Counted from the stretch's first letter, positions 3,196 through 27,239 are shown. The stretch is DNA of 64,000 nt from Alphaproteobacteria bacterium (GCA_965202905.1 OZ241868.1:2524208-2588207), one strand, 5' to 3'. Notes: generated by a model from the sequence alone, not told the origin. A program made the numbers and translations.

Positions 3196-3224
3196 TTGAC
3201 CGGCAGGCCGCCGGTAAGTACGAT
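3196..3224 (+). promoter_or_regulatory. Sigma70-like promoter upstream of precursor
   Basis: TTGACC-N17-TACGAT about 80 nt upstream of the precursor ATG; the motif recurs before other precursor copies. Confidence 0.65.
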
Positions 3225-4970: not shown

Positions 4971-5519
4971 TTAAAGGCGGCGCAGAATTCGGGCCAATCG
5001 CGCAAGGGTTCGGAACGCGCCCAGCCATCCCGCACCCGTCGGCCGCGCGCGGCGGACCGCGCCGGGCGCCGGGATCGCCATGCCTTTCCGGGCGGATCGC
5101 CAATCCTTCGGGCGCTGCCATTCACCGGCCCACAACCCCGCTCGTTCGCGCTTCGCCCGGCGTTCGTCGCTGCTGTAGTCCGGGGGGCCATATTCGGCGA
5201 CGGCGAAGCCATTGCGGACAAGCCATTGGCAGGCGTCCTCGCGCTTGCGGCCGTTCGTCAGGATGACGCGGCCGATGGTTCGCCCGTAGCGGTCGGCCCC
5301 TTTCCCGGCGTCTTCGATGTTGATGCGCCATCCCTCACGCTGGCGGCGGCGAAGATACGCGGCGAAGGCTTCCGTTGCAGCTTGCCCGGCGTCGAATTCG
5401 CGGCCCCTTGCGTTGCGCGCCGGCTGGCCGTTTTCGGGCGCATCGATTCCGGCGAGGCGCACCGGGCCGACGCCCGGAATGTCGAGCGTATCGGCGTCTA
5501 TCAAGCGGCCCTGGCTCAC
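4971..5519 (-). CDS. Thermonuclease (SNase-like) family protein
   Basis: DADTL…VRLAGIDAPE…DRYGRTIG…LVRNGFAV…AKRERAGLWAGEWQRPKDWR. Likely start is GTG at 5519. Confidence 0.85.
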   Translation of the reverse strand: MSQGRLIDADTLDIPGVGPVRLAGIDAPENGQPARNARGREFDAGQAATEAFAAYLRRRQREGWRINIEDAGKGADRYGRTIGRVILTNGRKREDACQWLVRNGFAVAEYGPPDYSSDERRAKRERAGLWAGEWQRPKDWRSARKGMAIPAPGAVRRARPTGAGWLGAFRTLARLARILRRL

Positions 5520-5529
5520 AGGGGCGCGC

Positions 5530-5725
5530 CCTGGAGGTACTTCGCGACCGCGTTGCGTTCGGCCTTCGCGCCGGCGGCGTAGTGGGCGACCATGCGGGCC
5601 GTCTTCCACCCGCCGGAAAGCATGGCTTCGGTGGTGGACGCGCCGCGCGCGTTCGGGGCGGTTTTCACGTCGCGCCATTCGAGCGTGGCGGCTTCGGAGC
5701 GTCGGAGCGCGCCTTGTCGTGATCG
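5530..5725 (-). pseudogene. Internally deleted tyrosine recombinase (Cre/XerD-like) remnant
   Basis: GALRRSEAATLEWRDV (box I R..E) is fused directly to GASTTEAMLSGGWKTARMVAHY (box II with catalytic Tyr). Confidence 0.7.
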
Positions 5726-5856: not shown

Positions 5857-6129
5857 TCATCGGCTGGTCCCCGTCGGCGCCGTGCGCGCGATCAACGCTT
5901 CGAGCGCCCGCATCGCTTCGGCGTGACGCTGGTCATCGGCGGCGATCCCGGCGGCGATTCCGGCGTCGCGCGCGCTGGCGTTCTGCTGCACCAGCCGCAA
6001 GCCCCAGGCGATCAGGAGGCATTGCGCGATCCCGATGGCGACGCCGCCGACGGTGGCCCATGCGGAGATTTCCCGCCAGCCCAGCGAGGCGGCGTGAAAG
6101 GCCAGCGTGGCGGTTTCGAACCCGGTCAT
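5857..6129 (-). CDS. Small single-TM hypothetical protein, copy 1 (90 aa)
   Basis: MTGFETATLAFHAASLGWREISAWATVGGVAIGIAQCLLIAWGLRLVQQNASARDAG…HAEAMRALEALIARTAPTGTSR; seven paralogous copies in the window. Confidence 0.7.
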   Translation of the reverse strand: MTGFETATLAFHAASLGWREISAWATVGGVAIGIAQCLLIAWGLRLVQQNASARDAGIAAGIAADDQRHAEAMRALEALIARTAPTGTSR

Positions 6130-6195
6130 GGCGGACCTTCTCTGTTCCGATCTGTTCCGATGATGCTCGTTGGCGACGGACGGCGCAATTCGATG

Positions 6196-6224
6196 TTGAC
6201 CGGCGGGCCGCCGGTAAGTACGAT
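6196..6224 (+). promoter_or_regulatory. Sigma70-like precursor promoter
   Basis: TTGACC-N17-TACGAT. Confidence 0.65.
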
Positions 6225-6314
6225 CTGCGTGTGCTGGATGTGGATCGCTCACAGACGGTTGACGGTGCGATACGGCACGACCGAGCCCAACTCTTGATCT
6301 CTGGGAGAGAAGAC

Positions 6315-6489
6315 ATGACCAACCACCGAGACGCCCTTGTACCCCCCCCCCCCCCCCCCGCAGGATGAGGCGCGGACACGTTGGACCCGGCCGATGATCC
6401 GCGAGCTGGGCCGCGTCCAGGTGACGGAAGGCGGCCCCCATTCTGAACTTACTGAGAATGACACATATTTCGACGTCAACGCATCGTGA
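6315..6489 (+). CDS. Lasso precursor A4, core GGPHSELTENDTYFDVNAS; out of frame at a C18 tract
   Basis: MTNHRDALV-(C18, 6342-6359)-QDEARTRWTRPMIRELGRVQVTE|GGPHSELTENDTYFDVNAS*; Glu9. Confidence 0.85.
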
Positions 6490-6759
6490 CGCACGGCCGC
6501 CGTCAGTCTGCGGAGCGCGCGGCGCCGGGCCGGTGACGTGAGCTCCGGAAACGGAGCGTTCGGTCCCCGGGCCGGGCCTGCCTCGCGTTCGCAAGCCGGC
6601 CGCACGGCTTCGTCGACTTGGTCTGGCCCCCTGGTCTGGCCCAAGGCGATGCCGGCCCGGCTCCCGGTCGGCCACGCGATCGACGTTCGCTGCGCTTGAG
6701 AACGTGTCAGCGGACCGTCTTGCCCTCTCGTGGATGAACCGGGGGATGAACCGGGGAGA

Positions 6760-6931
6760 CGGGGCCGCCGCTCCATTTCGGGCCGCTTGGCGTTCGGGGC
6801 GCGGGTGCGGCGACGGTGGGCTGCAATGCCACGCTTGGCCGGTTGCGGACGGGCGCCGCCCGGTCGGCGGGGGAGAGACCGAGACCTGCGCGCCGTTGCC
6901 CCCGCTTGACGCGGCCGGAGATCGCGCATAA
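6760..6931 (+). pseudogene. Decayed B2 3' fragment
   Basis: GGLQCHAWPVADGRRPVGGGETETCAPLPPLDAAGDRA matches the B2 C-terminus. Confidence 0.75.
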
Positions 6932-6998
6932 CATCTTTAGGTCTGGAGTACCGCGCGATAGCAGCGAGACCGGTCGAAGCCAGAAAGGAAACCGAGAC

Positions 6999-7172
6999 AT
7001 GAGCGACGGCGTGAAGAAGACTTTCAAAGATTACCCCCCGCAGGATGAGGCGCCGACGCGCTGGACCCGGCCGATGATCCGCGAACTGAGCCGCGTCCAG
7101 GGGACGGCAAGCGCCCTCGCTAGTGATGTGGTTGAGAATTCCCTATATTACATCCATGCGGACCTGTCATAG
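6999..7172 (+). CDS. Lasso precursor A5, core SALASDVVENSLYYIHADLS; intact
   Basis: MSDGVKKTFKDYPPQDEAPTRWTRPMIRELSRVQGTA|SALASDVVENSLYYIHADLS*; Thr-2, Ser1, Glu9; no long C tract. Confidence 0.9.
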   Translation: MSDGVKKTFKDYPPQDEAPTRWTRPMIRELSRVQGTASALASDVVENSLYYIHADLS

Positions 7173-7174
7173 AG

Positions 7175-7620
7175 CGCGGCGCTGGGCTGACGAAGGCATC
7201 CGGGCCGAGGGCGTCGGGACGCGGCGGCGGTATGCCGGCATACCCGACAAAGCGAATCCGGTGCGGTTGCGGGGATTGCGCGGGCGCGCGGCGCGCGGTT
7301 GATTAGGGCGAATGCGCCGGTCGAGCGCGCTCCCTCGCGCGCCGACATCGACCCCGGCGTCGACCAGGGCGCTGGTCGTGGAGGCCTTGCCGCCGTTCCC
7401 GGTAGCGCGGCTACCGGGCGCGTGCCCATGCGCCGCTGGCGTCGCCGGCTGGAGGTCCGTATTCGCGCCGGCGACCCGCTGCCGGAGGGTGGCCCGCACG
7501 GGCGCGCGGCGCGGCGGCGCGTTGCCGGCGCAAGCGCTGCATCTGCAAGCCCGGTCGCCGCTGGCGACGGCGCAGGTTGGACGGCCCCGACCTCGTCCGG
7601 CGCGGGAACCCGGCTGGCGG
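7175..7620 (+). pseudogene. Decayed copy of the B2 upstream region and 5' half
   Basis: STRALVVEAL…MRRWRRRLEVRIRAGDPLPEG remnants similar to 3780-4200. Confidence 0.7.
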
Positions 7621-7634
7621 TCATCGGCTGGCGG

Positions 7635-7940
7635 TCATCGGTTCGTCCCCGTCGGCGCCGTGCGCGCAATCAACGCTTCGAGCGCCCGCATCGCTTCGGC
7701 GTGGCTGGCGGCGTTCGCCTGCATGGCCTCTGCGTGACGCTGGTCATCGGTGGCGCGTCCGGCGGCGATCCCGGCGTCGCGCGCGCTGGCGTTCTGCTGC
7801 ATCAGCCGCAAGCCCCAGGCGATCAGGAGGCATTGCGCGATCCCGATGGCGACGCCGCCGACGGTGGCCCATGCGGAGATTTCCCGCCAGCCCAGCGAGG
7901 CGGCGTGAAAGGCCAGCGTGGCGGTTTCGAACCCGGTCAT
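7635..7940 (-). CDS. Small single-TM hypothetical protein, copy 2 (101 aa)
   Basis: MTGFETATLAFHAASLGW…DQRHAEAMQANAASHAEAMRALEALIARTAPTGTNR. Confidence 0.7.
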   Translation of the reverse strand: MTGFETATLAFHAASLGWREISAWATVGGVAIGIAQCLLIAWGLRLMQQNASARDAGIAAGRATDDQRHAEAMQANAASHAEAMRALEALIARTAPTGTNR

Positions 7941-8006
7941 GGCGGACCTTCTCTGTTCCGATCTGTTCCGATGATGCTCGTTGGCGACGGACGGCGCAAT
8001 TCGATG

Positions 8007-8035
8007 TTGACCGGCAGGCCGCCGGTAAGTACGAT
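8007..8035 (+). promoter_or_regulatory. Sigma70-like precursor promoter
   Basis: TTGACC-N17-TACGAT. Confidence 0.65.
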
Positions 8036-8125
8036 CTGCGTGTGCTGGATGTGGATCGCTCACAGACGGTTGACGGTGCGATACGGCACGACCGAGCCCA
8101 ACTCTTGATCTCTGGGAGAGAAGAC

Positions 8126-8277
8126 ATGACCAACCACCGAGACGCCCTTGTACCCCCCCCCCCCCCCGCAGGATGAGGCGGACGCGCTGGACCCGACCTG
8201 CGCGAGCTGGGCTGCGTCCAGGTGACGGAAAGCGGCACCCATAATGGCTGAGATGTAACGACAACGACGCATCGTGA
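8126..8277 (+). pseudogene. Lasso precursor A6, degenerate (C15 tract plus several small deletions); core resembles A7
   Basis: MTNHRDALV-(C15)… then GTGACGGAAAGCGGCACCCATAATGG…AACGACAACGACGCATCGTGA, which is the A7 core with deletions. Confidence 0.75.
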
Positions 8278-8539
8278 CGCACGGCCGCCGTCACTCTGCG
8301 GAGAGCGCGGCGCCGGGCCGGTGACGTGAGCTCCGGAAACGGAGCGTTCGGTCTCCGGGCCGGGCCTGCCTCGCGTTCGCAAGCCGGCCGCACGGCTTCG
8401 TCGACTTGGTCTGGCCCCCTGGTCTGGCCCAAGGCGATGCCGGCCCGGCTCCCGGTCGGCCACGCGATCGACGCTCGCTGCGCTTGAGAACGTGTCAGCG
8501 GACCGTCTTGCCCTCTCGTGGATGAACCGGGGGGATGAA

Positions 8540-8719
8540 CCGGGGAGACGGGGCCGCCGCTCCATTTCGGGCCGCTTGGCGTTCGGGCGCGGGTGCGGCG
8601 ACGGTGGGCTGCAATGCCACGCTTGGCCGGTTGCGGACGGGCGCCGCCCGGTCGGCGGGGGAGAGACCGAGACCTGCGCGCCGTTGCCCCCGCTTGACGC
8701 GGCCGGAGATCGCGCATAA
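8540..8719 (+). pseudogene. Decayed B2 3' fragment (duplicate of 6760-6931)
   Basis: Same translated remnant as the ORF-track entries at 6704 and 8492. Confidence 0.75.
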
Positions 8720-8786
8720 CATCTTTAGGTCTGGAGTACCGCGCGATAGCAGCGAGACCGGTCGAAGCCAGAAAGGAAACCGAGAC

Positions 8787-8957
8787 ATGAGCGACGGCGT
8801 GAAGAAGACTTTCAAAGATTACCCCCCGCAGGATGAGGCGCCGACGCGCTGGACCCGACCGACGATTCGCGAGCTGGGCTGCGTCCAGGTGACGGAAAGC
8901 GGCACCCATAATGGTCTTCTTGAGACTGCAACATATAACGACAACGACGCATCGTGA
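8787..8957 (+). CDS. Lasso precursor A7, core SGTHNGLLETATYNDNDAS; intact
   Basis: MSDGVKKTFKDYPPQDEAPTRWTRPTIRELGCVQVTE|SGTHNGLLETATYNDNDAS*; Glu9. Confidence 0.9.
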   Translation: MSDGVKKTFKDYPPQDEAPTRWTRPTIRELGCVQVTESGTHNGLLETATYNDNDAS

Positions 8958-9035
8958 CGCACGGCCGCCGTCACTCTGCGGCGAGGGCGGTTTTCGTGGC
9001 GTCCCGCGCGTCGCTCGATCGACGATAACAGCCAG

Positions 9036-9347
9036 TCACACCCTGTCGTCCCGTTTTCGCGGCCGGATGACGCGCTGGAGAATGGCGCCGAGCGCCGCGC
9101 CGGTGAGGACCGACAGCGCAAGGGCGACCCAGCGCAGACCGGCGGACATCTCGCCGAACGGGACGCCGGTGAGAACGGACAGCGCCACGAACGGCGCCAT
9201 GAAGGCCGTGCCGAGACCGGGCGACGCCTGAAGACCCAGAAACAGCCCGACAAAGGGCGCGAACAGGCCGAAAACGGCCCCCGCGATCAGTCCCGTCCGC
9301 AGGGATCGAAGACCGGTCGGCACGACGAGGCGGCGGGGCCGTTTCAT
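9036..9347 (-). CDS. Small multi-TM hypothetical membrane protein (103 aa), copy 1
   Basis: MKRPRRLVVPTGLRSLRTGLIAGAVFGLFAPFVGLFLG…VALALSVLTGAALGAILQRVIRP; hydrophobic; duplicated at 18434-18745. Confidence 0.65.
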   Translation of the reverse strand: MKRPRRLVVPTGLRSLRTGLIAGAVFGLFAPFVGLFLGLQASPGLGTAFMAPFVALSVLTGVPFGEMSAGLRWVALALSVLTGAALGAILQRVIRPRKRDDRV

Positions 9348-9729
9348 TGGTTTCGCGCCTGCCCTTTCGGTACGCGCCACCCCACACCGTCTTTGCCCGT
9401 GACCCGTTGTTTCTCAACGTCCCTCCAAGGGGGTCCCGATGCGACGACCGGCGAAAGATCTTGCCGACCGATCGCGCATCGCGGCCGTCCTCGACGCCCG
9501 CCTGCATCGTGGCCCGTGGGCGCGCCTTGTCGTGACCGGGCGGGGCGTGATCGGATGTGGCGTGATCGGGCGGGGCGTGATCGGGCGGGGCGTCGAGGCG
9601 AGCGAGCGCCCGGCGGCGGGGCGTTCCGCATCGCCGGCGCAAGCGCTGCATCCGCCAGCCCGGTCGCCGCTGGCGACGGCGCGGGTTGGACGGCCCCGAC
9701 CTCGCCCGGCGCGGGAACCCGGCTGGCGG

Positions 9730-10054
9730 TCATTGGTTCGTCCCCGTCGGCGCCGTGCGCGCGATCAACGCTTCGAGCGCCCGCATCGCTTCGGCGTGGC
9801 TGTCTGCGTGCGCTTGCATGGTTTCGGCGTGCGCCTGCATCGCTTCTGCGTGACGCTGGTCATCGGTGACGCGCCCGGCGGCGATCCCGGCGTCGCGCGC
9901 GCTGGCGTTCTGCTGCATCAGCCGCAAGCCCCAGGCGATCAGGAGGCATTGCGCGATCCCGATGGCGACGCCGCCGACGGTGGCCCATGCGGAGACTTCC
10001 TGCCAGCCCAGCGAGGCGGTGAAAGGCCAGCGTGGCGGTTTCGAACCCGGTCAT
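9730..10054 (-). pseudogene. Small single-TM protein, copy 3, frameshifted
   Basis: A 2-nt deletion near 10017-10020 relative to the other copies; extra HAETMQA heptad. Confidence 0.65.
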
Positions 10055-10330
10055 GGCGGACCCCCTCTGTTCCGATGATGCTCGTTGGCGACGGACGGCG
10101 CAATTCGACATCGACCGACGGCCGCCGGTCAGTACGATCGGCGCGTGTCGAAGGCGGCGGTTGAGGGCGTTCCTTCGCGCGCCGCGGCGTCGACCGAGGC
10201 GCTGGTCGTGGAGGCGCGGTCAGCTATCGCGCGCGCCCATGCGGCGCCGGCTGGAGACCCGTATTCGCGCCGGCGACCCGCGCGGGTTGGACGGCCCCGA
10301 CCTCGCCCGGCGCGGGAACCCGGCTGGCGG

Positions 10331-10636
10331 TCATCGGCTGGTCCCCGTCGGCGCCGTGCGCGCGATCAATGCTTCGAGCGCCCGCATCGCTTCGGCGTGG
10401 TTGGCGGCGTGCGCCTGCATGGCTTCTACATGACGCTGGTCATCGGTGGCGCGCCCGGCGGCGATCCCGGCGTCGCGCGCGCTGGCGTTCTGCTGCATCA
10501 GCCGCAAGCCCCAGGCAATGAGGGCGCATTGCGCGATCCCGATGGCGACGCCGCCGACGGTCGCCCATGCGGAGACTTCCTGCCAGCCCAGCGAGGCGGC
10601 GTGAAAGGCCAGCGTGGCGGTTTCGAACCCGGTCAT
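10331..10636 (-). CDS. Small single-TM hypothetical protein, copy 4
   Basis: MTGFETATLAFHAASLGWQEVSAW…. Confidence 0.7.
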   Translation of the reverse strand: MTGFETATLAFHAASLGWQEVSAWATVGGVAIGIAQCALIAWGLRLMQQNASARDAGIAAGRATDDQRHVEAMQAHAANHAEAMRALEALIARTAPTGTSR

Positions 10637-10682
10637 GGCTCGTTCCGATGATGCTCGTTGGCGACGGACGGCGCAATTCACG

Positions 10683-10711
10683 TTGACCGACGGGCCGCCG
10701 GTAAATACGAT
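10683..10711 (+). promoter_or_regulatory. Sigma70-like precursor promoter
   Basis: TTGACC-N17-TACGAT. Confidence 0.65.
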
Positions 10712-10790
10712 TAGCGCGTGCCGAATGTGGATCGCTCACAGGCGGCCGACGGCATGACAGAACCCAACTCTTGACTCCGGGAGAGACAAC

Positions 10791-10980
10791 ATGCCCAACC
10801 ACCGAGACGCCCTCCGTACCCCCCCCCCCCCAGGATGAGGCGCGGAAACGCTGGACCAGGCCGATCGTCCGCGAATGGGACGGCATGACAGAGACGACGA
10901 GCGATGTCTTCACGTCCAGTAAAGACACTACCGCGGAAGATGAGGGTACATACAGCTATATGAATACCAACGCGTCATGA
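10791..10980 (+). CDS. Lasso precursor A8, core probably SDVFTSSKDTTAEDEGTYSYMNTNAS; +1 frameshift at or near a C13 tract
   Basis: RBS GGGAGAG and ATG at 10791. MPNHRDAL… then QDEARKRWTRPIVREWDGMTETT|SDVFTSSKD…NAS*. Positional alignment gives Ser1/Asp9. Confidence 0.75.
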
Positions 10981-11173
10981 TGTAAGGCGCAATTCGCGAT
11001 CCGCAGGCATGGGGCCAGCCACGGGGGCAGCCACGGCGGCCGGGCAGGTTCCTGGGGGGCGGGCCGCCGGGTTCGATGAGACGGAACCGCCCGAGAGAGC
11101 TCGTCGGGATATGTCGTGGCGCCGCCGCGCCCGCCGGCCGTCCCCCCGCCGGGGCTGTCCCGGCAACGACGCC

Positions 11174-11690
11174 ATGACCTCCGCGCGTTTCGCCGTGGCG
11201 GTTGCGGCCCTTTTTCTGGTCCGCCCGGCGGCGGCCGGGACTCCCTTTTCTGGCCGGCCCGGCGGCGGCCGGGACTGTGGTCGATCTTGAACCCGTGCTC
11301 GTCGTCGACGCCTCACGCAGCATCGACGGCTATATGTACAGCCTGCAAGGCGAGGGTTACGCCCAGGCGCCGACCCGTCCCGAGGCGATCCGCGCGATTG
11401 CTTCGGGCTTGCGGGCTTGGCGCGGCGGGTAGCGGCCGCCTGTGTCGAGCGGTCGGGTCGGGCCGAACAGGCCGACTGGCCATCCTGGTCGACTGAACGG
11501 CGATCGACGGCCCGGCCTCCGCAGCGTCATTCGCCAAAACCCCGCGCCAAAACCCTGATGGGCCTGCCGCGACGCTCTTCCGACGGCGCCGGACCCGGCG
11601 CGGCCATCGACTTCGCCGCCGGGCAGTTCGGCGGCAACGGGTTCGGCGGCGCCCGCCGGGCGATCGACGCCTCCGGCGCCGTCCGCCTCA
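11174..11690 (+). pseudogene. DUF1194 (vWA-like) domain protein, fragmented
   Basis: Signal-like MTSARFAVAVAALFLVRPAAA; VDLEPVLVVDASRSID…LQGEGYAQA; GAAIDFAAGQFGGNGFGGARRAIDASG, spread across frames. Confidence 0.6.
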
Positions 11691-11692
11691 TA

Positions 11693-11821
11693 CCGGTCCT
11701 CCCACCCGGTCCTCCCACCCGGTCCTCCCACCCGGTCCTCCCACCCGGTCCTCCCACCCGGTCCTCCCACCCGGTCCTCCCACCCGGTCCTCCCACCCGG
11801 TCCTCCCACCCGGTCCTCCCA
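11693..11821. repeat. VNTR, 13-bp unit CCGGTCCTCCCAC x about 10
   Basis: Perfect tandem copies read directly from the sequence. Confidence 0.95.
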
Positions 11822-12298
11822 GTGGCGTAACGTGGCGGCGTAACGTGGCGACGGGACGCCCAACGCCTCCGCCGCCTGCTCCTGTATCAACTCCCGGGCC
11901 TGCCGCCTCGAATGAAGCTCCTCGACCTTCATCGCTCGTCGTCCTTGCAAGACCTCTGTTGTGCAAGACCTCCGCCGGCTTCATGGCGCCGCTTCTGCGA
12001 GGCGACGGCGAACCGGACGGATCGCCCGGACGGATCGCATGACGCCGGCGCCGGACATGACGCTCGTCAGCAACTCAGCAACACGGGTTAGCGACGCGCG
12101 CGGCCGCGCGCGTTGACAAGCGCGATCCGCCAACGCATCCTGACCGCAAGGCGACGGCAGGCCTTGGGAGCGGGCCCAATCGATCGCCGGATAACTCGGG
12201 GCAGGATCGCCCGGCGCGGCTGGGCGCGGTGGGGGACAGGAATTGGCGCTGCGCGTTGACGTGGCCGCCCGCGGCGGCGTCCGGACCGCGGCGATGCG

Positions 12299-13354
12299 AT
12301 GAGCGGTATTTCGGAAGGCGCGGTTCGTTGCGCCGTACCGGTGTGCGCCGTACTGGTGTGCGCGGTCCTTGTCGGCGCCGCCTCGCCGGCGATGCCGGCT
12401 TCGGAGACGATCGGTCCGACCAGGGTCTCCGGCGATCCGACCAGGGTCTCCGGGCTGGGCGCCGGTGCGCCCGGATCGGCCCGGGCGGCCGCCGTTTCCT
12501 TCGCGCCCGGGGTCCTGCTGCGCGCCGGGGTCCCGCCGCGCGGCGAAATCCCGGTTCGGGCCCGAACGACCGCGGCGCTGGCCGACGCCTTCGACCGGCA
12601 TGGCTATCGCCTCGACGACGTGCGCCGGTTCGGCGCCGTACCGCGGCTGTTCGTAGCGACCGCGCCGCCGGATCTGTCCGCCGTGGCCCGGGTGGCCGAT
12701 CGCAAGGCGCTGTTCATACGGATCGTTCTGCCGCTGGTGCTCGCGGTCAACGAGACGATCGCCGGAAACCGCGCCCGGATCGAGCGGTTGCGCGCCAGGC
12801 TGGCCGAGCCGCGGCGCCTGACGGTCGAACAGGAGCAATGGCTCGCCGCGATGTTCAGCCGCTACGACGCGCCGATGTTCGACTTCGCCGAGCTGCTGCG
12901 CCGGGTCGACGTCATCGTGCCATCGCTCGCCATCGCCCAGAGCGCGGAGGAAAGCGGCTGGGGCACCTCGCGGTTCGCGCGCAAGGCCAACGCCCTGTTC
13001 GGGCAGCGGATCTTCAAGGGGAGCAACGGGCTCGTCCCGCTCGCGCGGGAGCCCGGCGCGCGCCACCGCGTGCGCGCCTTCGACCATCTGCTGGACAGCG
13101 CGCGGGCCTACGCCGCCAATCTCAACTCGCACCCCGCCTATGCCAGGTTCCGCGCGGTGCGGGCCGGGCTGCGCCGCCGGAACCGCCCGTTCGACGGGCT
13201 GGAACTGGCCAGGACGCTGCGGTTCTATTCCGAACGTCGGGGCGCCTATGTCGCGACCATACGGCGGATCATCCGCATCAATCGGCTGACGGTCTTCGAC
13301 GGCGCCCGTCTGGGCGGGGCGACGCCGGACCTCGCGCACGACTCCGAGGGCTGA
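12299..13354 (+). CDS. Glucosaminidase-domain (Bax-like) protein
   Basis: RKALFIRIVLPLV…SLAIAQSAEESGWGTSRFARKANALFGQR…AYAANLNSHPAYARFR. Confidence 0.85.
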   Translation: MSGISEGAVRCAVPVCAVLVCAVLVGAASPAMPASETIGPTRVSGDPTRVSGLGAGAPGSARAAAVSFAPGVLLRAGVPPRGEIPVRARTTAALADAFDRHGYRLDDVRRFGAVPRLFVATAPPDLSAVARVADRKALFIRIVLPLVLAVNETIAGNRARIERLRARLAEPRRLTVEQEQWLAAMFSRYDAPMFDFAELLRRVDVIVPSLAIAQSAEESGWGTSRFARKANALFGQRIFKGSNGLVPLAREPGARHRVRAFDHLLDSARAYAANLNSHPAYARFRAVRAGLRRRNRPFDGLELARTLRFYSERRGAYVATIRRIIRINRLTVFDGARLGGATPDLAHDSEG

Positions 13355-13365
13355 TCGGATACCGC

Positions 13366-13535
13366 CGGTTCGAACCTTTCGCTTCGAACCGCTGGTTTCG
13401 TGTCGATGGATCGACTCATCGAGACATCGGAATGCGTCATGGTCGCCCGATCGTCATCGGCCAGGGGATTTCAGCCGGGGGATTTCAGCCGGGGGATTTC
13501 AGCCGGGGATTCGAATGTCCCGGTCGATCCGCTAG
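13366..13535 (+). mobile_element. MITE-like intergenic repeat, copy A (with an internal 14-bp triplication)
   Basis: Homologous to 39833-39965 and 59470-59603; ends in CTAG, which is the stop of the convergent gene. Confidence 0.7.
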
Positions 13536-14602
13536 CCGCGCGGCAGGTAGAACTGCATACCGTACCAGCGCCAGCGCCCGTCGCGCGCCGGCATGGTGCA
13601 GTTGATCCGCGCCCGCCCCGGCGACAGCGGCTGGTCCAGCCGCACCTCGATCCGCGCGCCGCCCAGGCGCTCGATGCGCGTCCTGCCCTGGCCCGAGGCG
13701 TAGCACGCCAGGGCGTCGATACGCTCGAGCGCCTTGCCGAACACCGTGAACCCGAAATTCGGCGGATTGGTCCCGGCGTTCAGCAGCGGGTCGAGCGGCG
13801 TGACGTCCGTGACCCGTAGCGGCAGCGCGCCGGCCGCCAGCCGGAACCGGCCGATGTCGCCATGCGCCTCGTTCATCGCGAACCGCGGCAGGAAATGAAA
13901 CCGCGAGCCCCGGTGAAGGACGCCGGAATGCTGGCCGAACGCGGCCGTGAACCCGTGTTCGACGACGATGTCGCGCACCTCCAGCGACATCTCGCCGAAG
14001 GGGTAGGCGAACAGCCTCGGCGTGCGGCCGAGCTCCTCCTCGAAGCGCCGGTTGGACTCGGCGATCTCGCGCGCGTTCTCGCCGCGGCTCGCCAGCGGCA
14101 TGTGGAGGTGCGAGGCGGTCTGGCTGCCGATGGTCACGCCGTCGCCGACGAGGTCGCGGATCTGGTCCCAGCTCATGTAGCCGCGAACCCGGTCGTCTAT
14201 CGGATCGGTGGCGACGAACAGCGTGAACGGCAGCCCCGCCTTGCGCAGCCGCGGCCAGGCCTCGGCGTGGACGGAGAGATAAGCGTCGTCGACGCTGAGA
14301 CCGATCGTGCGGTCCGGCAGCGCGCGGCCGATGCGCAGCGAGGCGAGGATCTCCGGGATCGGCAGCACGTTCAGCCCGCGCTCTTCGATCTCGGCGATAT
14401 GGGCATCGAACTGATCGAGGCGTATATTGGTAGACGGCGTCGCGCCCTCGCCGAAACGGTGATACATCAGAATCACGGCCGAGTCCGCCGCCTCGGCGCC
14501 CGGCGCGCCGGCAAGGCCGATGAGTCCGGTCAAGCCCGCGCCGGCAAGGCCGGCAAGGCCGATGAGTCCGGCTGCCCAGGCCGCGCGCAACGAACGAGTC
14601 AT
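13532..14602 (-). CDS. Polysaccharide deacetylase family protein
   Basis: Signal-like N-terminus; AVILMYHRFGE, LSVDDAYLS, TLFVATD, SQTASHLHM, FAYPFGE. Confidence 0.88.
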   Translation of the reverse strand: MTRSLRAAWAAGLIGLAGLAGAGLTGLIGLAGAPGAEAADSAVILMYHRFGEGATPSTNIRLDQFDAHIAEIEERGLNVLPIPEILASLRIGRALPDRTIGLSVDDAYLSVHAEAWPRLRKAGLPFTLFVATDPIDDRVRGYMSWDQIRDLVGDGVTIGSQTASHLHMPLASRGENAREIAESNRRFEEELGRTPRLFAYPFGEMSLEVRDIVVEHGFTAAFGQHSGVLHRGSRFHFLPRFAMNEAHGDIGRFRLAAGALPLRVTDVTPLDPLLNAGTNPPNFGFTVFGKALERIDALACYASGQGRTRIERLGGARIEVRLDQPLSPGRARINCTMPARDGRWRWYGMQFYLPRG

Positions 14603-14932
14603 GGCAGGGACCTCGATGAGCGGCGTCCCGGCGGCGTCCCGCCGCCGTCCCAGTGACGCCCCGGTGTCCAAAGCCCAGCTGGCGCCGTTTTTAGCGCATG
14701 TCGGAACGGGGCGGCAAGCGGCGACTCGCGCCGTTCGAAGGCCGGAGCGCTCCGCCTTCGGAGCGCCGCCCCGCCGGCCTCGTATGGTCGGTTGGCGCGC
14801 TCATCCGGCGCGGGCCTTTACAGGGCCATTGCAGGGCCTTTACAGGTCCTTTGCAGGGACCGGACCCGCCGCTATGGTTCGGCCGCCCGGGGAAATCGAG
14901 CCTGGGGAAATCGAGCAAGCGGGAGACGGCCG

Positions 14933-15769
14933 GTGGCGGGCGCGCTGTGCGGAAGAGTGGTGTTGATGACCGGGGCCGGCGGCGGCATGGGAAGCGCGAT
15001 GACCCTGGGCCTGATCGGCGAGGGCGCGGATGTGCTGGCGGTCGACATGCGCGAGGACGAACTACGGGCGCTGGCCGGGGAGGCCAGGAAGCGCAACGGA
15101 CCCGGGCGGGTCGAGCCAGCCGTCGCCGACATCGCCGACGCGCCCGCCTGCGAAGCCCTGGTGCGGCGCGCGATCGAGACCCTCGGCGGGCTGCATATGC
15201 TGGTCAACAACGCCGGCGTCGGTATGCAGACCATCCGCGAGACCTACATGAACGAGCCGGTCTCGTTCTGGGAGGCGGACATCGACCGCTGGCAGCGGAT
15301 GATGGACGTGAACTTCAAGGCGCCCTTCATGCTGGCGAAGTTCGCCGCGCCGCACATGACGGCGCAGGGCTGGGGCCGGATCGTCAACGTCACCACCAGC
15401 CTCGACACCATGCACCGGAAGGCCTACACGCCCTACGGCCAGTCCAAGGCCGCGCTGGAGGCCGCGACCGCGACCTGGGCGAAGGACCTCGAAGGGACAG
15501 GGGTGACGGTAAACGCGCTGGTCCCGGGCGGACCGACCGACACCGGCTTCATCCCGGCCGATGCGCCGTTCGACCGCGCCGCCCTGATCCAGCCGGACGT
15601 CATGGTCGCGCCGATCCTGTGGCTCGCCTCCGGGGACTCCGACGGGGTGAGCGATTGCCGGTTCGTCGGCGCCGACTTCGACCCGGCCATCCCGCCCGCC
15701 GCCGCCGTCCGGGCACCCGCCGCCTGGCCCGGCGTCGGCGCAGCCGCGTCCTGGCCCGGGGCACGCTGA
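14933..15769 (+). CDS. SDR family oxidoreductase
   Basis: TGAGGGMG, LVNNAG, YGQSK; GTG start after RBS GGGAGA. Confidence 0.88.
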   Translation: MAGALCGRVVLMTGAGGGMGSAMTLGLIGEGADVLAVDMREDELRALAGEARKRNGPGRVEPAVADIADAPACEALVRRAIETLGGLHMLVNNAGVGMQTIRETYMNEPVSFWEADIDRWQRMMDVNFKAPFMLAKFAAPHMTAQGWGRIVNVTTSLDTMHRKAYTPYGQSKAALEAATATWAKDLEGTGVTVNALVPGGPTDTGFIPADAPFDRAALIQPDVMVAPILWLASGDSDGVSDCRFVGADFDPAIPPAAAVRAPAAWPGVGAAASWPGAR

Positions 15770-15773
15770 GCCG

Positions 15774-16556
<783 letters not shown>

Positions 16557-16569
16557 GGCCATCGCCCCC

Positions 16570-17628
16570 GTGATCGCCCCCGTGATCTCGCCCGTGATCT
16601 CGCCTGAGGCCATCGCCGAGGCCGCTCGCAGTCTCCGCGCGGGCGCGCTGGTCGCCTTCCCCACCGAGACCGTCTACGGCCTCGGCGCCGATGCCGGCAA
16701 CGACCGCGCGGTCGCGCGAGTCTTCGCGGCCAAGGGCCGGCCGCGCTTCAACCCGCTGATCGTCCATGTCCCGGACTTCGCCCGGGCCGCGGCGGTCGTT
16801 GCGTTCGACGACCGCGCGCGCGATCTGGCGGCGCGGTTCTGGCCCGGCCCGCTGTCGCTGGTGCTGCCGCGGCGCGCCGATGCGCCGGTCTCGCCGCTGG
16901 CCGGCGCCGGGCTCGATACCCTGGCGGTGCGCGTGCCGGCGAACGATATCGCGCGCGCTTTGATCGAGGCCGCCGGCGCGCCGGTCGCGGCGCCCAGCGC
17001 CAACCCGGCCGGCGGCGTCAGCCCGACGCGGGCCGGGCATGTCGCGGCCGCGCTGGGGGGTGCGGTCGAGATCATCCTCGATGGCGGGCCCTGCGCGGTC
17101 GGGCTCGAATCGACCGTGATCGATCTCTCGACCGCGCGTCCGGTCCTGTTGCGGCCGGGCGGGGTCGCGCTGGAGGATCTGACCGCCGCGCTCGGACCGA
17201 TCGATCGGGGCGCCGCCACGGATGAAGCGGACGAAGCGGCCTTGCGCTCGCCCGGCCGGCTGGCGAGCCACTATGCGCCGCGCCTGCCGCTCCGGATCGA
17301 CGCGGCGACGGTCCGTCCCGGCGAGGCGCTGCTCTCCTTCGGACCCCACGCTCTGACCGGCTTCGCCGCGGAGCGCAACCTGAGCGTCGCCGGCGACCCG
17401 GTCGAGGCCGCCGCCAACCTGTTCGCGATGCTTCGCGAGCTCGACCGCCCCGAATATTCGGGCATCGTCGCCATGCCGGCGCCCGAGGCCGGGCTCGGAC
17501 GGGCGATCATGGACCGCCTGCGCCGGGCGGCCGCCCCCCGACCGCTTGCCGCGTCCGGCGGGGCGGCGTCGACTCCGAGGCGGTCGACTCCGAGGCGGTC
17601 GACTCCGCCGCGGCGGCCGAGGGCGTGA
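16570..17628 (+). CDS. sua5: L-threonylcarbamoyladenylate synthase (Sua5 type)
   Basis: VAFPTETVYGLGA, AKGRPRFNPLIVH, FWPGPLSLV, AAPSAN, GLESTVID, SPGRLASHYAP. Confidence 0.92.
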   Translation: MIAPVISPVISPEAIAEAARSLRAGALVAFPTETVYGLGADAGNDRAVARVFAAKGRPRFNPLIVHVPDFARAAAVVAFDDRARDLAARFWPGPLSLVLPRRADAPVSPLAGAGLDTLAVRVPANDIARALIEAAGAPVAAPSANPAGGVSPTRAGHVAAALGGAVEIILDGGPCAVGLESTVIDLSTARPVLLRPGGVALEDLTAALGPIDRGAATDEADEAALRSPGRLASHYAPRLPLRIDAATVRPGEALLSFGPHALTGFAAERNLSVAGDPVEAAANLFAMLRELDRPEYSGIVAMPAPEAGLGRAIMDRLRRAAAPRPLAASGGAASTPRRSTPRRSTPPRRPRA

Positions 17629-17964
17629 CCGCCGCGCCGACCGGGGTCGGGCTCGCCGGCGGCGCGGCGCCGATCGCCGCGCGCATGGACGAGGCGGAGT
17701 CGACGAGGCGGAGTCCTGCGCCGACCGCCCGACCGGCCCGCCCTCGCCCCCGCCCTCGATCGTGTCCGCTTCGTGTCGGCGAACCGGTCGCCGCCGTCGT
17801 CGCGACCGGGCTCTGCCGGGCCGGCGACGCCTGCGCGCCGATCGAAATCGGCGCCCGGTGAAGTTCTCGTTGACAGGCGCGCCGCCGGTAAAGATGTTTG
17901 AAGGGTGCCAAACTCGGGCCGCTCGCAGGCGGTCTTGGCCCGAGTGCTCGGTGTAGCGGGATCG

Positions 17965-18065
17965 AAGATCCGGGCGATCCCGGTCGATATCGGCGGCGGG
18001 TTTGGCGTCGAGACGCCGCTCTGCGCCGAGGAGGTCGTGACGGCCTCGGCGGCGCGGCTGGCCGG
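17965..18065 (+). pseudogene. Short fragment of a CoxL/xanthine dehydrogenase Mo-binding subunit
   Basis: IRAIPVDIGGGFGVETPLCAEEVVTASAARL resembles the DIGGGFG motif. Confidence 0.5.
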
Positions 18066-18267
18066 TGGAATGGACGCAAGACCGGATCGAGCGCCGTTCA
18101 TCCCAGGGCGATTCTGGCCCAGGGCGATTCTGGCCCAAGGCGATTCTGGCCCGGCTCCCGGTCGGCCACGCGATCGACGTTCACTGCACGAAGCGTTGCC
18201 GGCTCTATCCAGGGGCAGCCGCGGGGGCCGGGTGGGTTCCTGGCGGCGGGTCGCTGGGTTCGATGAG

Positions 18268-18333
18268 ACGGAAGTCGGCACCGAGGCCAGGGCGGCTGAG
18301 AATGCTGATTACTTCGACGCCACCGCATCGTTG
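18268..18333 (+). pseudogene. Orphan lasso core A9 (VGTEARAAENADYFDATAS), no leader, stop lost
   Basis: ACG GAA | GTC GGC ACC GAG GCC AGG GCG GCT GAG AAT GCT GAT TAC TTC GAC GCC ACC GCA TCG TTG. It parallels the A1 core and is followed by the conserved post-precursor flank. Confidence 0.7.
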
Positions 18334-18349
18334 ACCCGACCCTCAGGCA

Positions 18350-19200
18350 TCATGACGCACGGCCGCCGTCACTCTGCGGCGAGGGCGGTTTTCGTGGCGT
18401 CCCGCGCGTCGCTCGATCGACGATAACAGCCCGTCACACCCTGTCGTCCCGTTTTCGCGGCCGGATGACGCGCTGGAGAATGGCGCCGAGCGCCGCGCCG
18501 GTGAGGACCGACAGCGCAAGGGCGACCCAGCGCAGACCGGCGGACATCTCGCCGAACGGGACGCCGGTGAGAACGGACAGCGCCACGAACGGCGCCATGA
18601 AGGCCGTGCCGAGACCGGGCGACGCCTGAAGACCCAGAAACAGCCCGACAAAGGGCGCGAACAGGCCGAAAACGGCCCCCGCGATCAGTCCCGTCCGCAG
18701 GGATCGAAGACCGGTCGGCACGACGAGGCGGCGGGGCCGTTTCATTGGCTCCCCGCCTGCCCTTTCGGTACGCGCCACCCCACACCGTCTTTGCCCGTGA
18801 CCCGTTGTTTCTCGACGTCCCTCCAAGGGGGTCCCGATGCGACGACCGGCGAAAGATCTTGCCGACCGATCGCGCATCGCGGCCGTCCTCGACGCCCGCC
18901 TGCATCGTGGCCCGTGGGCGCGCCTTGTCGTGACCGGGCGGGGCGTGATCGGATGTGGCGTGATCGGATGGGCGTGATCGGGCGGGGCGTCGAGGCGAGC
19001 GAGCGCCCGGCGGCGGGGCGTTCCGCATCGCCGGCGCAAGCGCTGCATCCGCCAGCCCGGTCGCCGCTGGCGACGGCGCGGGTTGGACGGCCCCGACCTC
19101 GCCCGGCGCGGGAACCCGGCTGGCGGTCATCGGCTGGTCCCCGTCGGCGCCGTGCGCGCGATCAATGCTTCGAGCGCCCGCATCGCTTCGGCGTGGTTGG
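18350..19200. repeat. Dispersed duplication of about 8950-9800
   Basis: Near-identical DNA, including the 103-aa membrane protein gene. Confidence 0.88.
18434..18745 (-). CDS. Small multi-TM hypothetical membrane protein, copy 2
   Basis: Translation identical to 9036-9347. Confidence 0.65.
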   Translation of the reverse strand: MKRPRRLVVPTGLRSLRTGLIAGAVFGLFAPFVGLFLGLQASPGLGTAFMAPFVALSVLTGVPFGEMSAGLRWVALALSVLTGAALGAILQRVIRPRKRDDRV

Positions 19201-19432
19201 CGGCGTGCGCCTGCATGGCTTCTACATGACGCTGGTCATCGGTGGCGCGCCCGGCGGCGATCCCGGCGTCGCGCGCGCTGGCGCTTTGCTGCATCAGGTG
19301 TAAGCCCCAGGCAATGAGGGCGCATTGCGCGATCCCGATGGCGACGACGCCGACAGCGGCCCATGCGGCAATCTGTTGCCAGCCCAGCGAGGCGGCGTGA
19401 AAGGCCAGCGTGGCGGTTTCGAACCCGGTCAT
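19127..19432 (-). CDS. Small single-TM hypothetical protein, copy 5
   Basis: MTGFETATLAFHAASLGWQQIAAWAAVGVVAIG…. Confidence 0.7.
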   Translation of the reverse strand: MTGFETATLAFHAASLGWQQIAAWAAVGVVAIGIAQCALIAWGLHLMQQSASARDAGIAAGRATDDQRHVEAMQAHAANHAEAMRALEALIARTAPTGTSR

Positions 19433-19674
19433 GGCGGACCCCCTCGTTCCGATGATGCTCGTTGGCGACGGACGGCGCAATTCGACATCGACCGACGGGC
19501 CGCCGGTCAGTACGATCGGCGCGCGCCGCGGCGTCGACCGAGGCGCTGGTCGTGGAGGCGCGGCCAGCTATTGCGCGCGCCCATGCGGCGCCGGCTGGAG
19601 ACCCGTATTCGCGCCGGCGACCCGCGCGGGTTGGACGGCCCCGACCTCGCCCGGCGCGGGAACCCGGCTGGCGG

Positions 19675-19980
19675 TCATCGGCTGGTCCCCGTCGGCGCCG
19701 TGCGCGCGATCAACACTTCGAGCGCCCGCATCGCTTCGGCGTGGCTGTCTGCGTGCGCCTGCATCGCTTCTGCGTGGCGCTGGTCATCGGTGACGCGCCC
19801 GGCGGCGATCCCGGCGTCGCGCGCGCTGGCGTTCTGCTGCATCAGCCGCAAGCCCCAGGCGATCAGGAGGCATTGCGCGATCCCGATGGCGACGCCGCCG
19901 ACGGTGGCCCATGCGGAGACTTCCTGCCAGCCCAGCGAGGCGGCGTGAAAGGCCAGCGTGGCGGTTTCGAACCCGGTCAT
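19675..19980 (-). CDS. Small single-TM hypothetical protein, copy 6
   Basis: Paralog lying in a tandem unit of about 550-570 bp. Confidence 0.7.
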   Translation of the reverse strand: MTGFETATLAFHAASLGWQEVSAWATVGGVAIGIAQCLLIAWGLRLMQQNASARDAGIAAGRVTDDQRHAEAMQAHADSHAEAMRALEVLIARTAPTGTSR

Positions 19981-20246
19981 GGCGGACCCCTCTGTTCCGA
20001 TGATGCTCGTTGGCGACGGACGGCGCAATTCGACATCGACCGACGGGCCGCCGGTCAGTACGACCGGCGCGTGTCGAAGGCGGCGGTTGAGGGCGTTCCT
20101 TCGCGCGCCGCGGCGTCGACCGAGGCGCTGGTCGTGGAGGCGCGGCCAGCGCCCATGCGGCGCCGGCTGGAGACCCGTATTCGCGCCGGCGACCCGCGCG
20201 GGTTGGACGGCCCCGACCTCGCCCGGCGCGGGAACCCGGCTGGCGG

Positions 20247-20552
20247 TCATTGGTTCGTCCCCGTCGGCGCCGTGCGCGCGATCAACGCTTCGAGCGCCTG
20301 CATCGCTTCGGCGTGGCTGGCGGCGTGCGCCTGCATGGCTTCGGCGTGGCGCTGGTCATCGGTGGCGCGCCCGGCGGCGATCCCGGCGTCGCGCGCGCTG
20401 GCGCTTTGCTGCATCAGGTGTAAGCCCCAGGCAATCAGGGCGCATTGCGCGATCCCGATGGCGACGCCGCCGACGGTCGCCCATGCGGAGACTTCCTGCC
20501 AGCCCAGCGAGGCGGCGTGAAAGGCCAGCGTGGCGGTTTCAAACCCGGTCAT
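20247..20552 (-). CDS. Small single-TM hypothetical protein, copy 7
   Basis: Paralog in the tandem unit. Confidence 0.7.
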   Translation of the reverse strand: MTGFETATLAFHAASLGWQEVSAWATVGGVAIGIAQCALIAWGLHLMQQSASARDAGIAAGRATDDQRHAEAMQAHAASHAEAMQALEALIARTAPTGTNQ

Positions 20553-20615
20553 GGCGGACCCCCTCGTTCCGATGATGCTCGTTGGCGACAAACGGCGCAA
20601 TTCATGTTGTCCGGC

Positions 20616-21000
20616 GGCAGTGTCTCAGTTTGAAAATCTGCGGCCCCGGCTCGTTGAACCGGGGCCGCGAACCGGAGATCGATCGGAAGCGGTAGACCAG
20701 GCCCGGGCGCGGCGCCGCGGGAGCCTTCGGGCGGCCGTTCACCCCGGGCCCGGCGACCCGCGTAGCCCGCCTTCCGACGCTCTGCTTCACGCACGACGAC
20801 TTCGTGCGCCTCCACGAGACGCTGAGAGGCGCCCCGGCGATGGCGGCGGGCGTATCGGACACGCTGCGGGACACACGCTGCGGGACGGGGAATGGATCGC
20901 CGGGGAATGGATCGCCGGGGAATGGATCGCCGGGGAATGGATCGTCAACTCGATCGACGCGCAGGCGACGAAGCTATTCGATTCAAACCGAGACACTACG
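20616..21000 (+). mobile_element. Internally deleted IS (IS1-like family) remnant retaining both ends
   Basis: Left end GGCAGTGTCTCAGTTTGAAA and right end TTCAAACCGAGACACTAC form an imperfect inverted repeat. Internal DFVRLHETLRGAPAMAAGVSDTL is a transposase C-terminus. It contains GGGGAATGGATCGCC x4. Confidence 0.7.
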
Positions 21001-21119
21001 CCATTTCTTGTTGACAGGCGGGCCGCCGGTAAAGATGATTGGAGGGTGCCGAACATGGCCTGCTCGCAGGCGTTCGGTGGCTTGATTGGATCCAACTCTT
21101 GATCTCTGGGAGAGAAAAC

Positions 21120-21295
21120 ATGACCAACCATCGAGACGCCCTTGTACCCCCCCCCCCCCCCCGCAGGATGAGGCGCGGAAACGCTGGACCCGGCCAACGA
21201 TCTTCGCACTGGGCGATGTCGAGGTGACGGAAGGCGCCACTTCTCCGAATGTCAAGGAGGATAACACCGAATACCCCTCGTCATCATCATCGTAG
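21120..21295 (+). CDS. Lasso precursor A10, core GATSPNVKEDNTEYPSSSSS; out of frame at a C16 tract
   Basis: MTNHRDALV-(C16, 21147-21162)-QDEARKRWTRPTIFALGDVEVTE|GATSPNVKEDNTEYPSSSSS*; promoter-like TTGACA-N17-GATGAT at 21011. Confidence 0.85.
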
Positions 21296-21360
21296 ACCCG
21301 TCTCTCGGACATCGTGACGCACGGCCGCCCTCGATCTACGGGTAGCGCGGCGGCGGGCCG

Positions 21361-21572
21361 GTGAAGCGAAATCCGGAAACGGAAGGTCCGGTCCCCGTAC
21401 CGGTGGATGCTGCGATGGACGCCGCGGCGCTCCGCGACCGGGCGGCGCGGCTTCCCGATCGGCTGTGGGGCATCGAGGACGGCTTCGAGAGCAACCGCTA
21501 TTCCTGCTTCCATCATACCCGGCACATCATCTTCCGGTTCATCCCGGGCAATTTCGATCCGCGGCGTTTCTT
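21361..21572 (+). pseudogene. 5' fragment of a putative Asp/Asn beta-hydroxylase-domain protein
   Basis: DAAALRDRAARLPDRLW…FHHTRHIIFRFIPGN, recalled as the N-terminus of that family. It is truncated by a B2 remnant. Confidence 0.45.
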
Positions 21573-21759
21573 TTGCGGTTGCGGTTCCAGGGATTGCGCG
21601 GGCGCGCGGGTGCGCGGCGCGCATGGTCGGAGGGCGAACGCGGCGGCTGAGCGCGTTCTTTCGTGCGCCGGCGTCGACCCCGGCTTCGCCCGAGGCGCCG
21701 GTCGTGGAGGCCTTGCCGCCGTTCCCGGCGGCGCGGCTGGGGCGGGCTGAATCCAGCCC

Positions 21760-27210: not shown

Positions 27211-27239
27211 ATCGTATTCACCGGCGGCCCGCCTGTCAA
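27211..27239 (-). promoter_or_regulatory. Sigma70-like precursor promoter (minus strand)
   Basis: TTGACA-N17-TACGAT on the reverse strand. Confidence 0.7.

Follow-up and report, generated by a model that had tools for sequence, protein, structure and literature searches.

The window analysed here, a stretch of 64,000 nucleotides from an alphaproteobacterium (GCA_965202905.1, OZ241868.1:2524208-2588207), holds a multi-precursor lasso peptide locus in which seven copies of a small open reading frame (ORF) for a membrane protein, here named S, lie among the promoters and genes of the lasso precursors. We conclude that S probably has no specific role in lasso biosynthesis and instead is a hitchhiker of mobile-element ancestry in the lasso repeats. 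S and the precursor promoter share a single junction, S occurs in mobile contexts within and outside this genome, it is under selection as a protein, and it lacks a lasso link elsewhere. From a broader perspective, S belongs to an undescribed, dispersed and multi-copy family that is linked to mobile DNA.

Six-frame translation of the window yields S seven times, always on the minus strand and with a length of 90-108 aa (copies W1-W7, Table 1), and a repeat search groups all seven copies as a single family. The translations follow the pattern MTGFETAT...RALEALIARTAP, and a Shine-Dalgarno sequence (GAGGGGG/AGAAGG) is located about 6 nt 5' of the ATG in every copy of the window. The sequence-only reading that preceded this work had listed seven unannotated small-protein copies, and their number and positions were borne out. 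It had also described a varying number of His/Met-containing heptads; the number of units does vary, but the length variants differ by in-frame units of 33 nt and 21 nt (HAEAMQAxAAx / HAETMQA) and not by strict heptads, and all indels among intact copies keep the frame. The frameshift reported for the copy at 9730 (W3) is present in the window sequence but not in public contigs of either DNA (sequencing runs X1 and X6) or RNA (runs X10 and X11). All of these have an additional GC dinucleotide behind position 10018, and with it W3 is an intact ORF of 108 aa that is identical to public protein P0004. Thus, the frameshift is probably an error of the long-read assembly or a strain difference (polymorphism), and all seven copies are probably intact. 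The 5' flank of W3 has a 1-nt difference at 10068 as well.

Given the base composition of the window (about 70% G+C), an open frame alone is weak evidence for a gene, because stop codons are rare; by our own arithmetic, a random frame of 101 codons has a chance of about 14% of being open at 70% GC. The earlier suggestion that open ORFs reflect selection therefore falls short as an argument, but its conclusion holds. Among the nine intact genomic S copies, pairwise Nei-Gojobori dN/dS values are mostly 0.2-0.5, and they are 0.23-0.31 against Y1, the most distant S copy (dS about 0.8). When each variant is counted once against the majority codon, omega is 0.36-0.44 (binomial p = 7e-5 to 1e-3). 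The ratio is thus well below 1, the value that had been named beforehand as telling against a functional tie between the copies and the lasso locus. S is a real protein-coding gene under moderate purifying selection (omega about 0.4, p about 0.001), and we base this on omega and on conservation across phyla, not on the open frame alone.

How is S connected to the precursor promoter? Upstream alignment and motif search place the promoter core (TTGACC-17-TACGAT) 46-66 nt from the S ATG in W1-W6, with an identical junction in all of them, whereas W7 retains only a TTGTCC remnant, after which the sequence diverges. The proposed distance of about 50-70 nt from the back of a promoter thus describes W1-W6 well but does not extend to W7. 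Pairing with a precursor promoter is also incomplete: a WTRP leader is found downstream in three of the seven window copies only (W1, W2 and W4), whereas W3, W5 and W6 have a degenerate -35 box (TCGACC) and then a decayed N-terminal stub of the lasso B2 protease gene instead of a precursor. A repeat search reveals near-identical 1.8-kb blocks in the window, and the precursor gene after W2 (window 8100-8260) is frameshifted past the WTRP motif, with its near-identical sister block after W1 intact. Across the genome, the promoter core occurs 29 times, 12 times back to back with S and 17 times without it, and it is absent at the two S copies X1 and Y1. Consequently, S and the promoter are two independent repeat families that were presumably joined once. 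The ORFs do travel as a repeated module, as had been proposed; the further proposal of a selfish mini-module that carries the promoter agrees with mobile-element ancestry, but not with the many promoters that lack S nor with X1 and Y1, which lack the promoter. Only the last 20 nt of the flank between S and the promoter are common with X1. A sigma-70 consensus scan of the minus strand found no S promoter, and by eye the flank contains one weak candidate on that strand (TTGCGC-17-CATCAT, 7/12 consensus positions).

The promoter-less copies X1 and Y1 are those embedded in element remnants, and Y1 is the most divergent S copy by far. The remaining copies of the genome have one junction to the promoter in common. 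In total, the genome contains about 16 S copies at four loci, about 14 of them at three lasso-repeat loci. X1 resides in a 3.5-kb tRNA-Lys islet with no lasso parts nearby (G000:C1:1119124-1122696, locus L036), the ends of which are 46-nt direct repeats of the tRNA-Lys 3' end. The islet is ordered as tRNA-Lys, an RHH gene divergent from S, S, the gene for a membrane protein M, a GIY-YIG-like ORF and a staphylococcal-nuclease homologue, and it has no intact integrase. Directly ahead of Y1 lies part of a tyrosine recombinase, a C-terminal fragment that scores above the Phage_integrase cut-off. Pieces of the X1 islet also adjoin window copies: the nuclease gene and an integrase tail come after W1, and M comes after W3 and W5. 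The tail is 85% identical to the fragment next to Y1, which exceeds the Pfam cut-off, and the nuclease homologue downstream of W1 is a remnant of a mobile islet. The genome has three copies of M, and W3, W5 and X1 each have one of them a few hundred bases downstream.

W5-W7 belong to a 4.2-kb block situated between a Sua5-like gene and a FAD-oxidase gene. These two genes are directly adjacent, without the block, in four relatives (G001, G002, G005 and G006), and relative to them the block is an insertion; it extends the C-terminus of the Sua5-like ORF. W5-W7 form tandem units of 550-570 nt, in which S is combined with a degenerate promoter and a B2 stub. N-terminal B2 stubs stop at about residue 54-66 (82 by protein comparison), and C-terminal stubs start at residue 82-96. 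Integration of an S-promoter-precursor block into B2 with a duplicated att core was considered as a source of these stubs and rejected, because there is no overlapping DNA repeat. A 15-nt tandem repeat of about four copies lies at about 20880-20950 (GEWIA / GNGSP by frame), just upstream of the S-less promoter at 21011.

In other genomes, too, S is found in several mobile contexts. At L003 and L004, an RHH gene is divergent from S, and S is followed 15 nt later by an integrase gene, which we call Cre-like from our own reading of its C-terminal motifs, and then by a second S. The RHH protein of the X1 islet is 51-67% identical to those of L003 and L004. The two S genes around the integrase have a 59-nt identical core (L003:8001-9665, L004:1754-3397); within the flanking pair, the 3' end and the spacer to the next ATG are identical, and in L003 the 5' parts differ. 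The L004 contig is circular (12.9 kb) and encodes Mob_Pre; it also carries three tandem RHH copies with integrase fragments. In Binatia, small Rep/MobA plasmids carry S ahead of a CoiA_N gene (L028 and L029). S adjoins a transposase fragment and an integrase at L005, and at other loci a MazE-like gene or an AAA_18 gene comes after it. S also forms tandem arrays of 4-8 paralogues with differing repeat numbers. The same array in two samples of one organism (L024 versus L025, 8001-10200) differs in the number and the lengths of its members, and S arrays thus turn over fast by unequal recombination. Single copies are found immediately behind recA, in the recJ-rplU and pal-cpoB intervals, beside secA, and behind rpoC and a MarR gene. 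Arrays were also seen directly upstream of rpoB (L001:8001-9967, a metagenome contig) and directly downstream of rpoC (L030:7345-11921, G006). Such positions may reflect chance or insertion next to conserved genes.

The distribution of S is patchy. S is present in 10 of 61 relatives, in neither of two congeners, and in 3 of the 401 genomes that were drawn evenly from the class. Ten carrier genomes were searched, of which eight have 7-27 matches, one has 2 and one has 1, spread chromosome-wide. The carriers in the genome collection are metagenome-assembled genomes labelled Alphaproteobacteria, Gammaproteobacteria, Pseudomonadales or Candidatus Binatia. Sources of S, where visible, are sponge or marine invertebrate metagenomes, an association that is only partly documented for the whole family; the sequencing runs that contain the window are labelled as sponge or marine metagenomes. 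S thus behaves as cargo of mobile elements by its location on an att-bounded islet or plasmids, its recombinase neighbours, its patchiness and its presence/absence polymorphism.

No such pattern connects S with lasso genes. About 50 foreign S loci contain no B2 or precursor relative, and the gene tables of L001-L005 and L022-L029 list neither PF13471 nor PF05402. In a search of relatives, PF13471 was absent from the S carriers G006 (32 S matches), G040 (16), G019 and G011, and in G013 it is encoded on a different contig from S. A conserved co-occurrence of S with lasso clusters across genomes was not found, and by Pfam and NCBIfam S contains none of the domains of lasso accessories (PqqD/RRE, PF13471, Asn_synthase, ABC_membrane + ABC_tran, isopeptidase). 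An S array beside an Asn_synthase-like gene and an ABC exporter (L024/L025) was examined as a possible lasso cluster and rejected; its neighbours are capsule and glycosyltransferase genes, it has no B2 or leader-like peptide, and judged by eye from the translations it is a polysaccharide locus. The sequence-only reading had offered S as a cognate immunity, anchor or export factor, and had accepted that homologues scattered without a link to lasso loci would speak against this. Outside this genome, they are scattered in just that way, on plasmids, next to integrases and among housekeeping genes, and the proposed role is left unsupported by these homologues and by the lack of PF13471 in G006 and G040.

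What kind of protein is S? Scans against Pfam, NCBIfam, PHROGs, PADLOC and PDB sequences returned no significant match, and what PHROGs, PADLOC and PDB gave was coiled-coil noise; as positive controls, the B2 and the cyclase of the window were recovered as PF13471 and PF00733. A full-text literature search for the C-terminal motif found no paper. A word index supplied 36 homologues, and a profile search of 1.84 billion representative proteins identified 633 clusters, defined at 50% identity, at E <= 1e-3 and 284 at E <= 1e-10. Longer profile matches look like read-through gene calls, with no fused known domain by eye. Homologues at 30-55% identity keep the same architecture: an acidic beginning of the MTEFE type, to which ATLAFQ repeats are sometimes added; a single transmembrane helix with G-I-R-A-M at its end; (R/Q)HxExM units, from one to seven or more in number; and a nearly invariant C-terminal end, HAEAMRALEALI(A/E)RTAP, which can also be written RHAEAM-RALEALI(A/E)RTAP. 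S proteins have a length of 75-200 aa with a median of 113, and charged helix makes up over half of each. AlphaFold2 predicts one helix spanning residues 3-94 (92 residues, pLDDT 83). Among 116 family members, the N-terminal flank has a mean of 0.9 K+R versus 2.5 D+E, and the 15 residues past the transmembrane helix have a mean of 3.7 K+R. By the positive-inside rule, this charge distribution predicts a single-pass protein of N-out/C-in topology with a long cytoplasmic repeat helix, which would probably oligomerise as a coiled coil. The prediction points to a cytoplasmic coiled coil, adjustable in length and tethered to the membrane, that binds something conserved through its invariant C-terminal motif.

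We envision the following origin of the S repeats. The native setting of S would be mobile DNA, with an RHH gene divergent from S and a Cre-like tyrosine recombinase gene thereafter, and S probably entered this genome with integrative islets, as exemplified by the tRNA-Lys islet of X1 and by Y1 after its integrase fragment. A single fusion between one islet S and a lasso precursor promoter would then have placed the -35 box 46-66 nt 5' of the S ATG. Since X1 shares only 20 nt 5' of the ATG with the junction copies, the promoter and precursor presumably took the place normally held by the RHH gene. W1 is a candidate founder of this junction, because the integrase tail and the nuclease gene are still found downstream. 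The chimeric block of S, promoter, precursor and B2 stub would subsequently have multiplied by segmental and tandem duplication and by ectopic recombination among lasso modules, with the seven S copies of the window and about 14 at the three lasso-repeat loci as the outcome.

Several findings weigh against this origin. Fourteen of the 16 genomic S copies are located in lasso-repeat loci, and 12 of them are back to back with the precursor promoter. No S copy in the genome has an intact integrase next to it, and current mobility is thus unsupported. The ends of the W5-W7 insertion have no long direct repeats, only a 7-nt microhomology (GGGGCGG). Many foreign copies are lone genes among housekeeping genes with no mobile-element gene nearby, and these fit an ordinary patchy cellular gene as well as an element relic. 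Codon-position counts by themselves show a weak skew only (15:20:28, p = 0.13). As for RNA, in four sponge or marine metatranscriptomes, unstranded assembled contigs, which may contain DNA, have a depth of 3-11 over S copies in some runs versus 10-680 over precursors. W4 and the islet copy X1 have no RNA contig coverage; the contigs on the X1 islet are only tRNA pieces of other organisms, and the coverage of this organism is low in those runs. As far as these contigs go, S is transcribed at a low level.

The concentration of S in lasso repeats might be taken to mean that it was secondarily co-opted, in this genome specifically, as a lasso accessory that provides self-tolerance or tethers the maturation machinery and is co-regulated via the back-to-back promoter. 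Indeed, 12 of 29 promoters are paired with S at a fixed distance, the S ORFs stay open while adjacent B2 stubs decay, and omega is below 1. However, four of the seven window copies face a degenerate promoter and no precursor, 17 promoter copies do without S, precursors are transcribed far above S with W4 undetected, the family is common in genomes without a lasso B2, and S predates the fusion, as Y1 (dS about 0.8) is found beside an integrase fragment; such a co-option is therefore very unlikely. Alternatively, the S ORFs of this genome may be functionless, decaying relics that remain open through recent duplication and the rarity of stops at 70% GC. This would account for the about 6 of 16 copies that are truncated, frameshifted or interrupted by a stop, for the S copy Z1 with its omega >1 against W1 and W2, for the missing consensus promoter of S and for RNA signals that are low or absent. 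We nevertheless regard it as highly improbable, because intact copies show purifying selection, their indels never break the frame, Shine-Dalgarno sequence and start codon are retained, the W3 frameshift is missing from public contigs, and the same architecture is kept across phyla down to 30-45% identity.

Yet another scenario treats S as a recombination substrate, whereby Cre-like recombinases cross over inside the S coding core at the end of the transmembrane helix (GxxxIxWxGIRAM). S copies would then be footprints or cassettes, and the recombinase would have spread S, built its arrays and stitched it to the lasso modules. In its favour, the integrase of L003 is positioned between two S genes with the 59-nt identical core, the same 3' end and different 5' parts; in addition, this genome has integrase fragments both downstream of S (at W1) and upstream of it (at Y1), the truncated copies Y2 and Y3 begin at residue 40, inside the equivalent core, eight of ten searched genomes have 7-27 matches at many unrelated sites, and S is found at the ends of recA, rpoC, pal and recJ, as integrative elements are. 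In contrast, the X1 islet is bounded by tRNA-Lys repeats and not by S, most arrays and single copies have no recombinase in the vicinity, the identical core of L003 may stem from gene conversion or recent duplication, a lox-like site with inverted repeats was not found, and purifying selection implies that the protein itself matters. Taken together, we judge the substrate scenario to be distinctly unlikely.

If S is a hitchhiker in the lasso repeats, what does it do elsewhere? It might serve its carrier element, in exclusion, defence or maintenance, with the C-terminal motif recruiting a conserved cytoplasmic partner to the membrane. This is a guess, possible but doubtful, that is motivated by the position of S between regulator and integrase genes, its presence on plasmids, its patchiness, its arrays and the variation of its repeat number. 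A bolder and, in our estimation, unlikely idea is that S constitutes a self-propagating coding cassette of about 300 nt in sponge-symbiont bacteria, the transmembrane-coding core of which doubles as a Cre-like crossover site. If true, it would explain at once the spread over at least three phyla, the 7-27 scattered matches in most carriers, the strain-level turnover of arrays and the way in which S is welded to, and contributes to the shuffling of, unrelated modules such as the lasso precursor cassettes.

For the lasso locus, a corollary is that S drops out as a candidate for membrane immunity or anchoring, and that reconstitution of the pathway need not include it. The locus itself appears to be assembled from mobile-islet remnants and modules of lasso promoter, precursor and B2 stub, which were recombined and amplified, the 4.2-kb insertion included. 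As a sizeable family that is new to databases (633 clusters), multi-copy, array-forming and linked to mobile DNA, S is a reasonable target in the search for new element-borne membrane functions or for a new relationship between a recombinase and its target.

Table 1. Positions of S copies, lasso parts and element remnants in the window.
Feature	Position	Strand	Remarks
S copy W1	5857-6129	minus	90 aa, one 11-aa unit fewer
S copy W2	7635-7940	minus	101 aa, convergent with B2 N-terminal stub
S copy W3	9730-10054	minus	frameshifted in window; 108 aa with GC added behind 10018
S copy W4	10331-10636	minus	101 aa
S copy W5	19127-19432	minus	101 aa
S copy W6	19675-19980	minus	101 aa
S copy W7	20247-20552	minus	101 aa; upstream only TTGTCC promoter remnant
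Shared 5' flank of S	6130-6195	minus	46-66 nt in W1-W6, holds Shine-Dalgarno sequence
Lasso precursor promoter TTGACC-17-TACGAT	6196-6224	plus	back to back with W1
Intact promoter copies beside S	8007-8035, 10683-10711		motif search
Degenerate promoter copies (TCGACC) beside S	10111-10138, 19488-19516, 20036-20064		
Promoter copies without S	3196-3224, 21011-21039, 27211-27239 (minus strand)		
Lasso precursor after W1	6337-6489	plus	WTRPMIRELGRVQVTE|GGPHSELTE...; highly represented in sponge metatranscriptomes
Lasso B2 protease	3941-4399	plus	PF13471; sole intact copy in genome
Decayed B2 stubs	7235-7562, 10150-10281, 19529-19625, 20076-20197, 21580-21739		
Staphylococcal-nuclease homologue (PF00565)	4971-5521	minus	87% DNA identity to nuclease gene of tRNA-Lys islet
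Tyrosine recombinase C-terminal fragment	5516-5698	minus	..GGWKTARMVAHYAAGAKAERNAVAKYL; directly downstream of W1
Membrane protein M	9036-9380	minus	114 aa, multi-helix, no Pfam match; downstream of W3
Second copy of M	about 18434-18778	minus	downstream of W5
4.2-kb block	17567-21739		M, W5-W7, degenerate promoters, one precursor, B2 stub

Precursor-like tblastn matches number about 75 across the 3.87-Mb chromosome, and B2 is missing altogether in both congeners. A tandem repeat on the minus strand at about 11640-11800 encodes GWEDRVGGPGGRT three to four times inside an ORF of 197 aa (11357-11950).

How does S compare with known systems? With lasso accessories, such as McjD-type exporter/immunity proteins, the isopeptidase and B1/RRE, S shares only its proximity to precursor promoters, and that in this genome only; unlike them, it lacks their domains and mostly occurs in genomes and loci without lasso genes. 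Type I toxins (Hok, TisB, Fst) are hydrophobic peptides of about 20-60 aa that are paired with an overlapping antisense RNA as antitoxin, whereas S has 75-200 aa and over half of it is charged helix. S resembles SilE and PcoE in having repeated His/Met on one helix face (HxxxM) in a variable number of units. These two, however, are secreted to the periplasm and carry HxxM/MxxH motifs, whereas S lacks a signal peptide and is predicted to be cytoplasmic, and metal-resistance genes are not found near it. Rz-like i-spanins and FtsB/FtsL-type proteins similarly combine an N-terminal single transmembrane helix with a long helical, probably oligomeric rod, and one S family member gave a non-significant match to an Rz-like PHROG (E = 0.012). 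The charges of S, however, predict the reverse topology, which puts the rod into the cytoplasm; S is accompanied by neither an o-spanin gene nor a division partner gene, and loci L001-L005 and L022-L029 have no lysis genes near S. Integron cassettes are likewise small genes of the same orientation in arrays, associated with a tyrosine recombinase and variable in copy number between strains, but S arrays consist of paralogues of one gene, mostly without an adjacent integrase, and the recombinase is Cre-like rather than IntI. Superinfection-exclusion or moron genes are found in the lysogeny or integration modules of temperate elements, for example Sie2009 in lactococcal phages and Ltp in TP-J34. 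S differs from them by the lack of sequence similarity (PHROGs gave nothing significant), by its predicted N-out/C-in coiled coil, by its tandem arrays and by up to 27 matches per genome among the genomes searched. Like them, S is small and membrane-anchored, lies between a gene for a small DNA-binding regulator and an integrase gene, and is a patchy gene that moves with mobile DNA.

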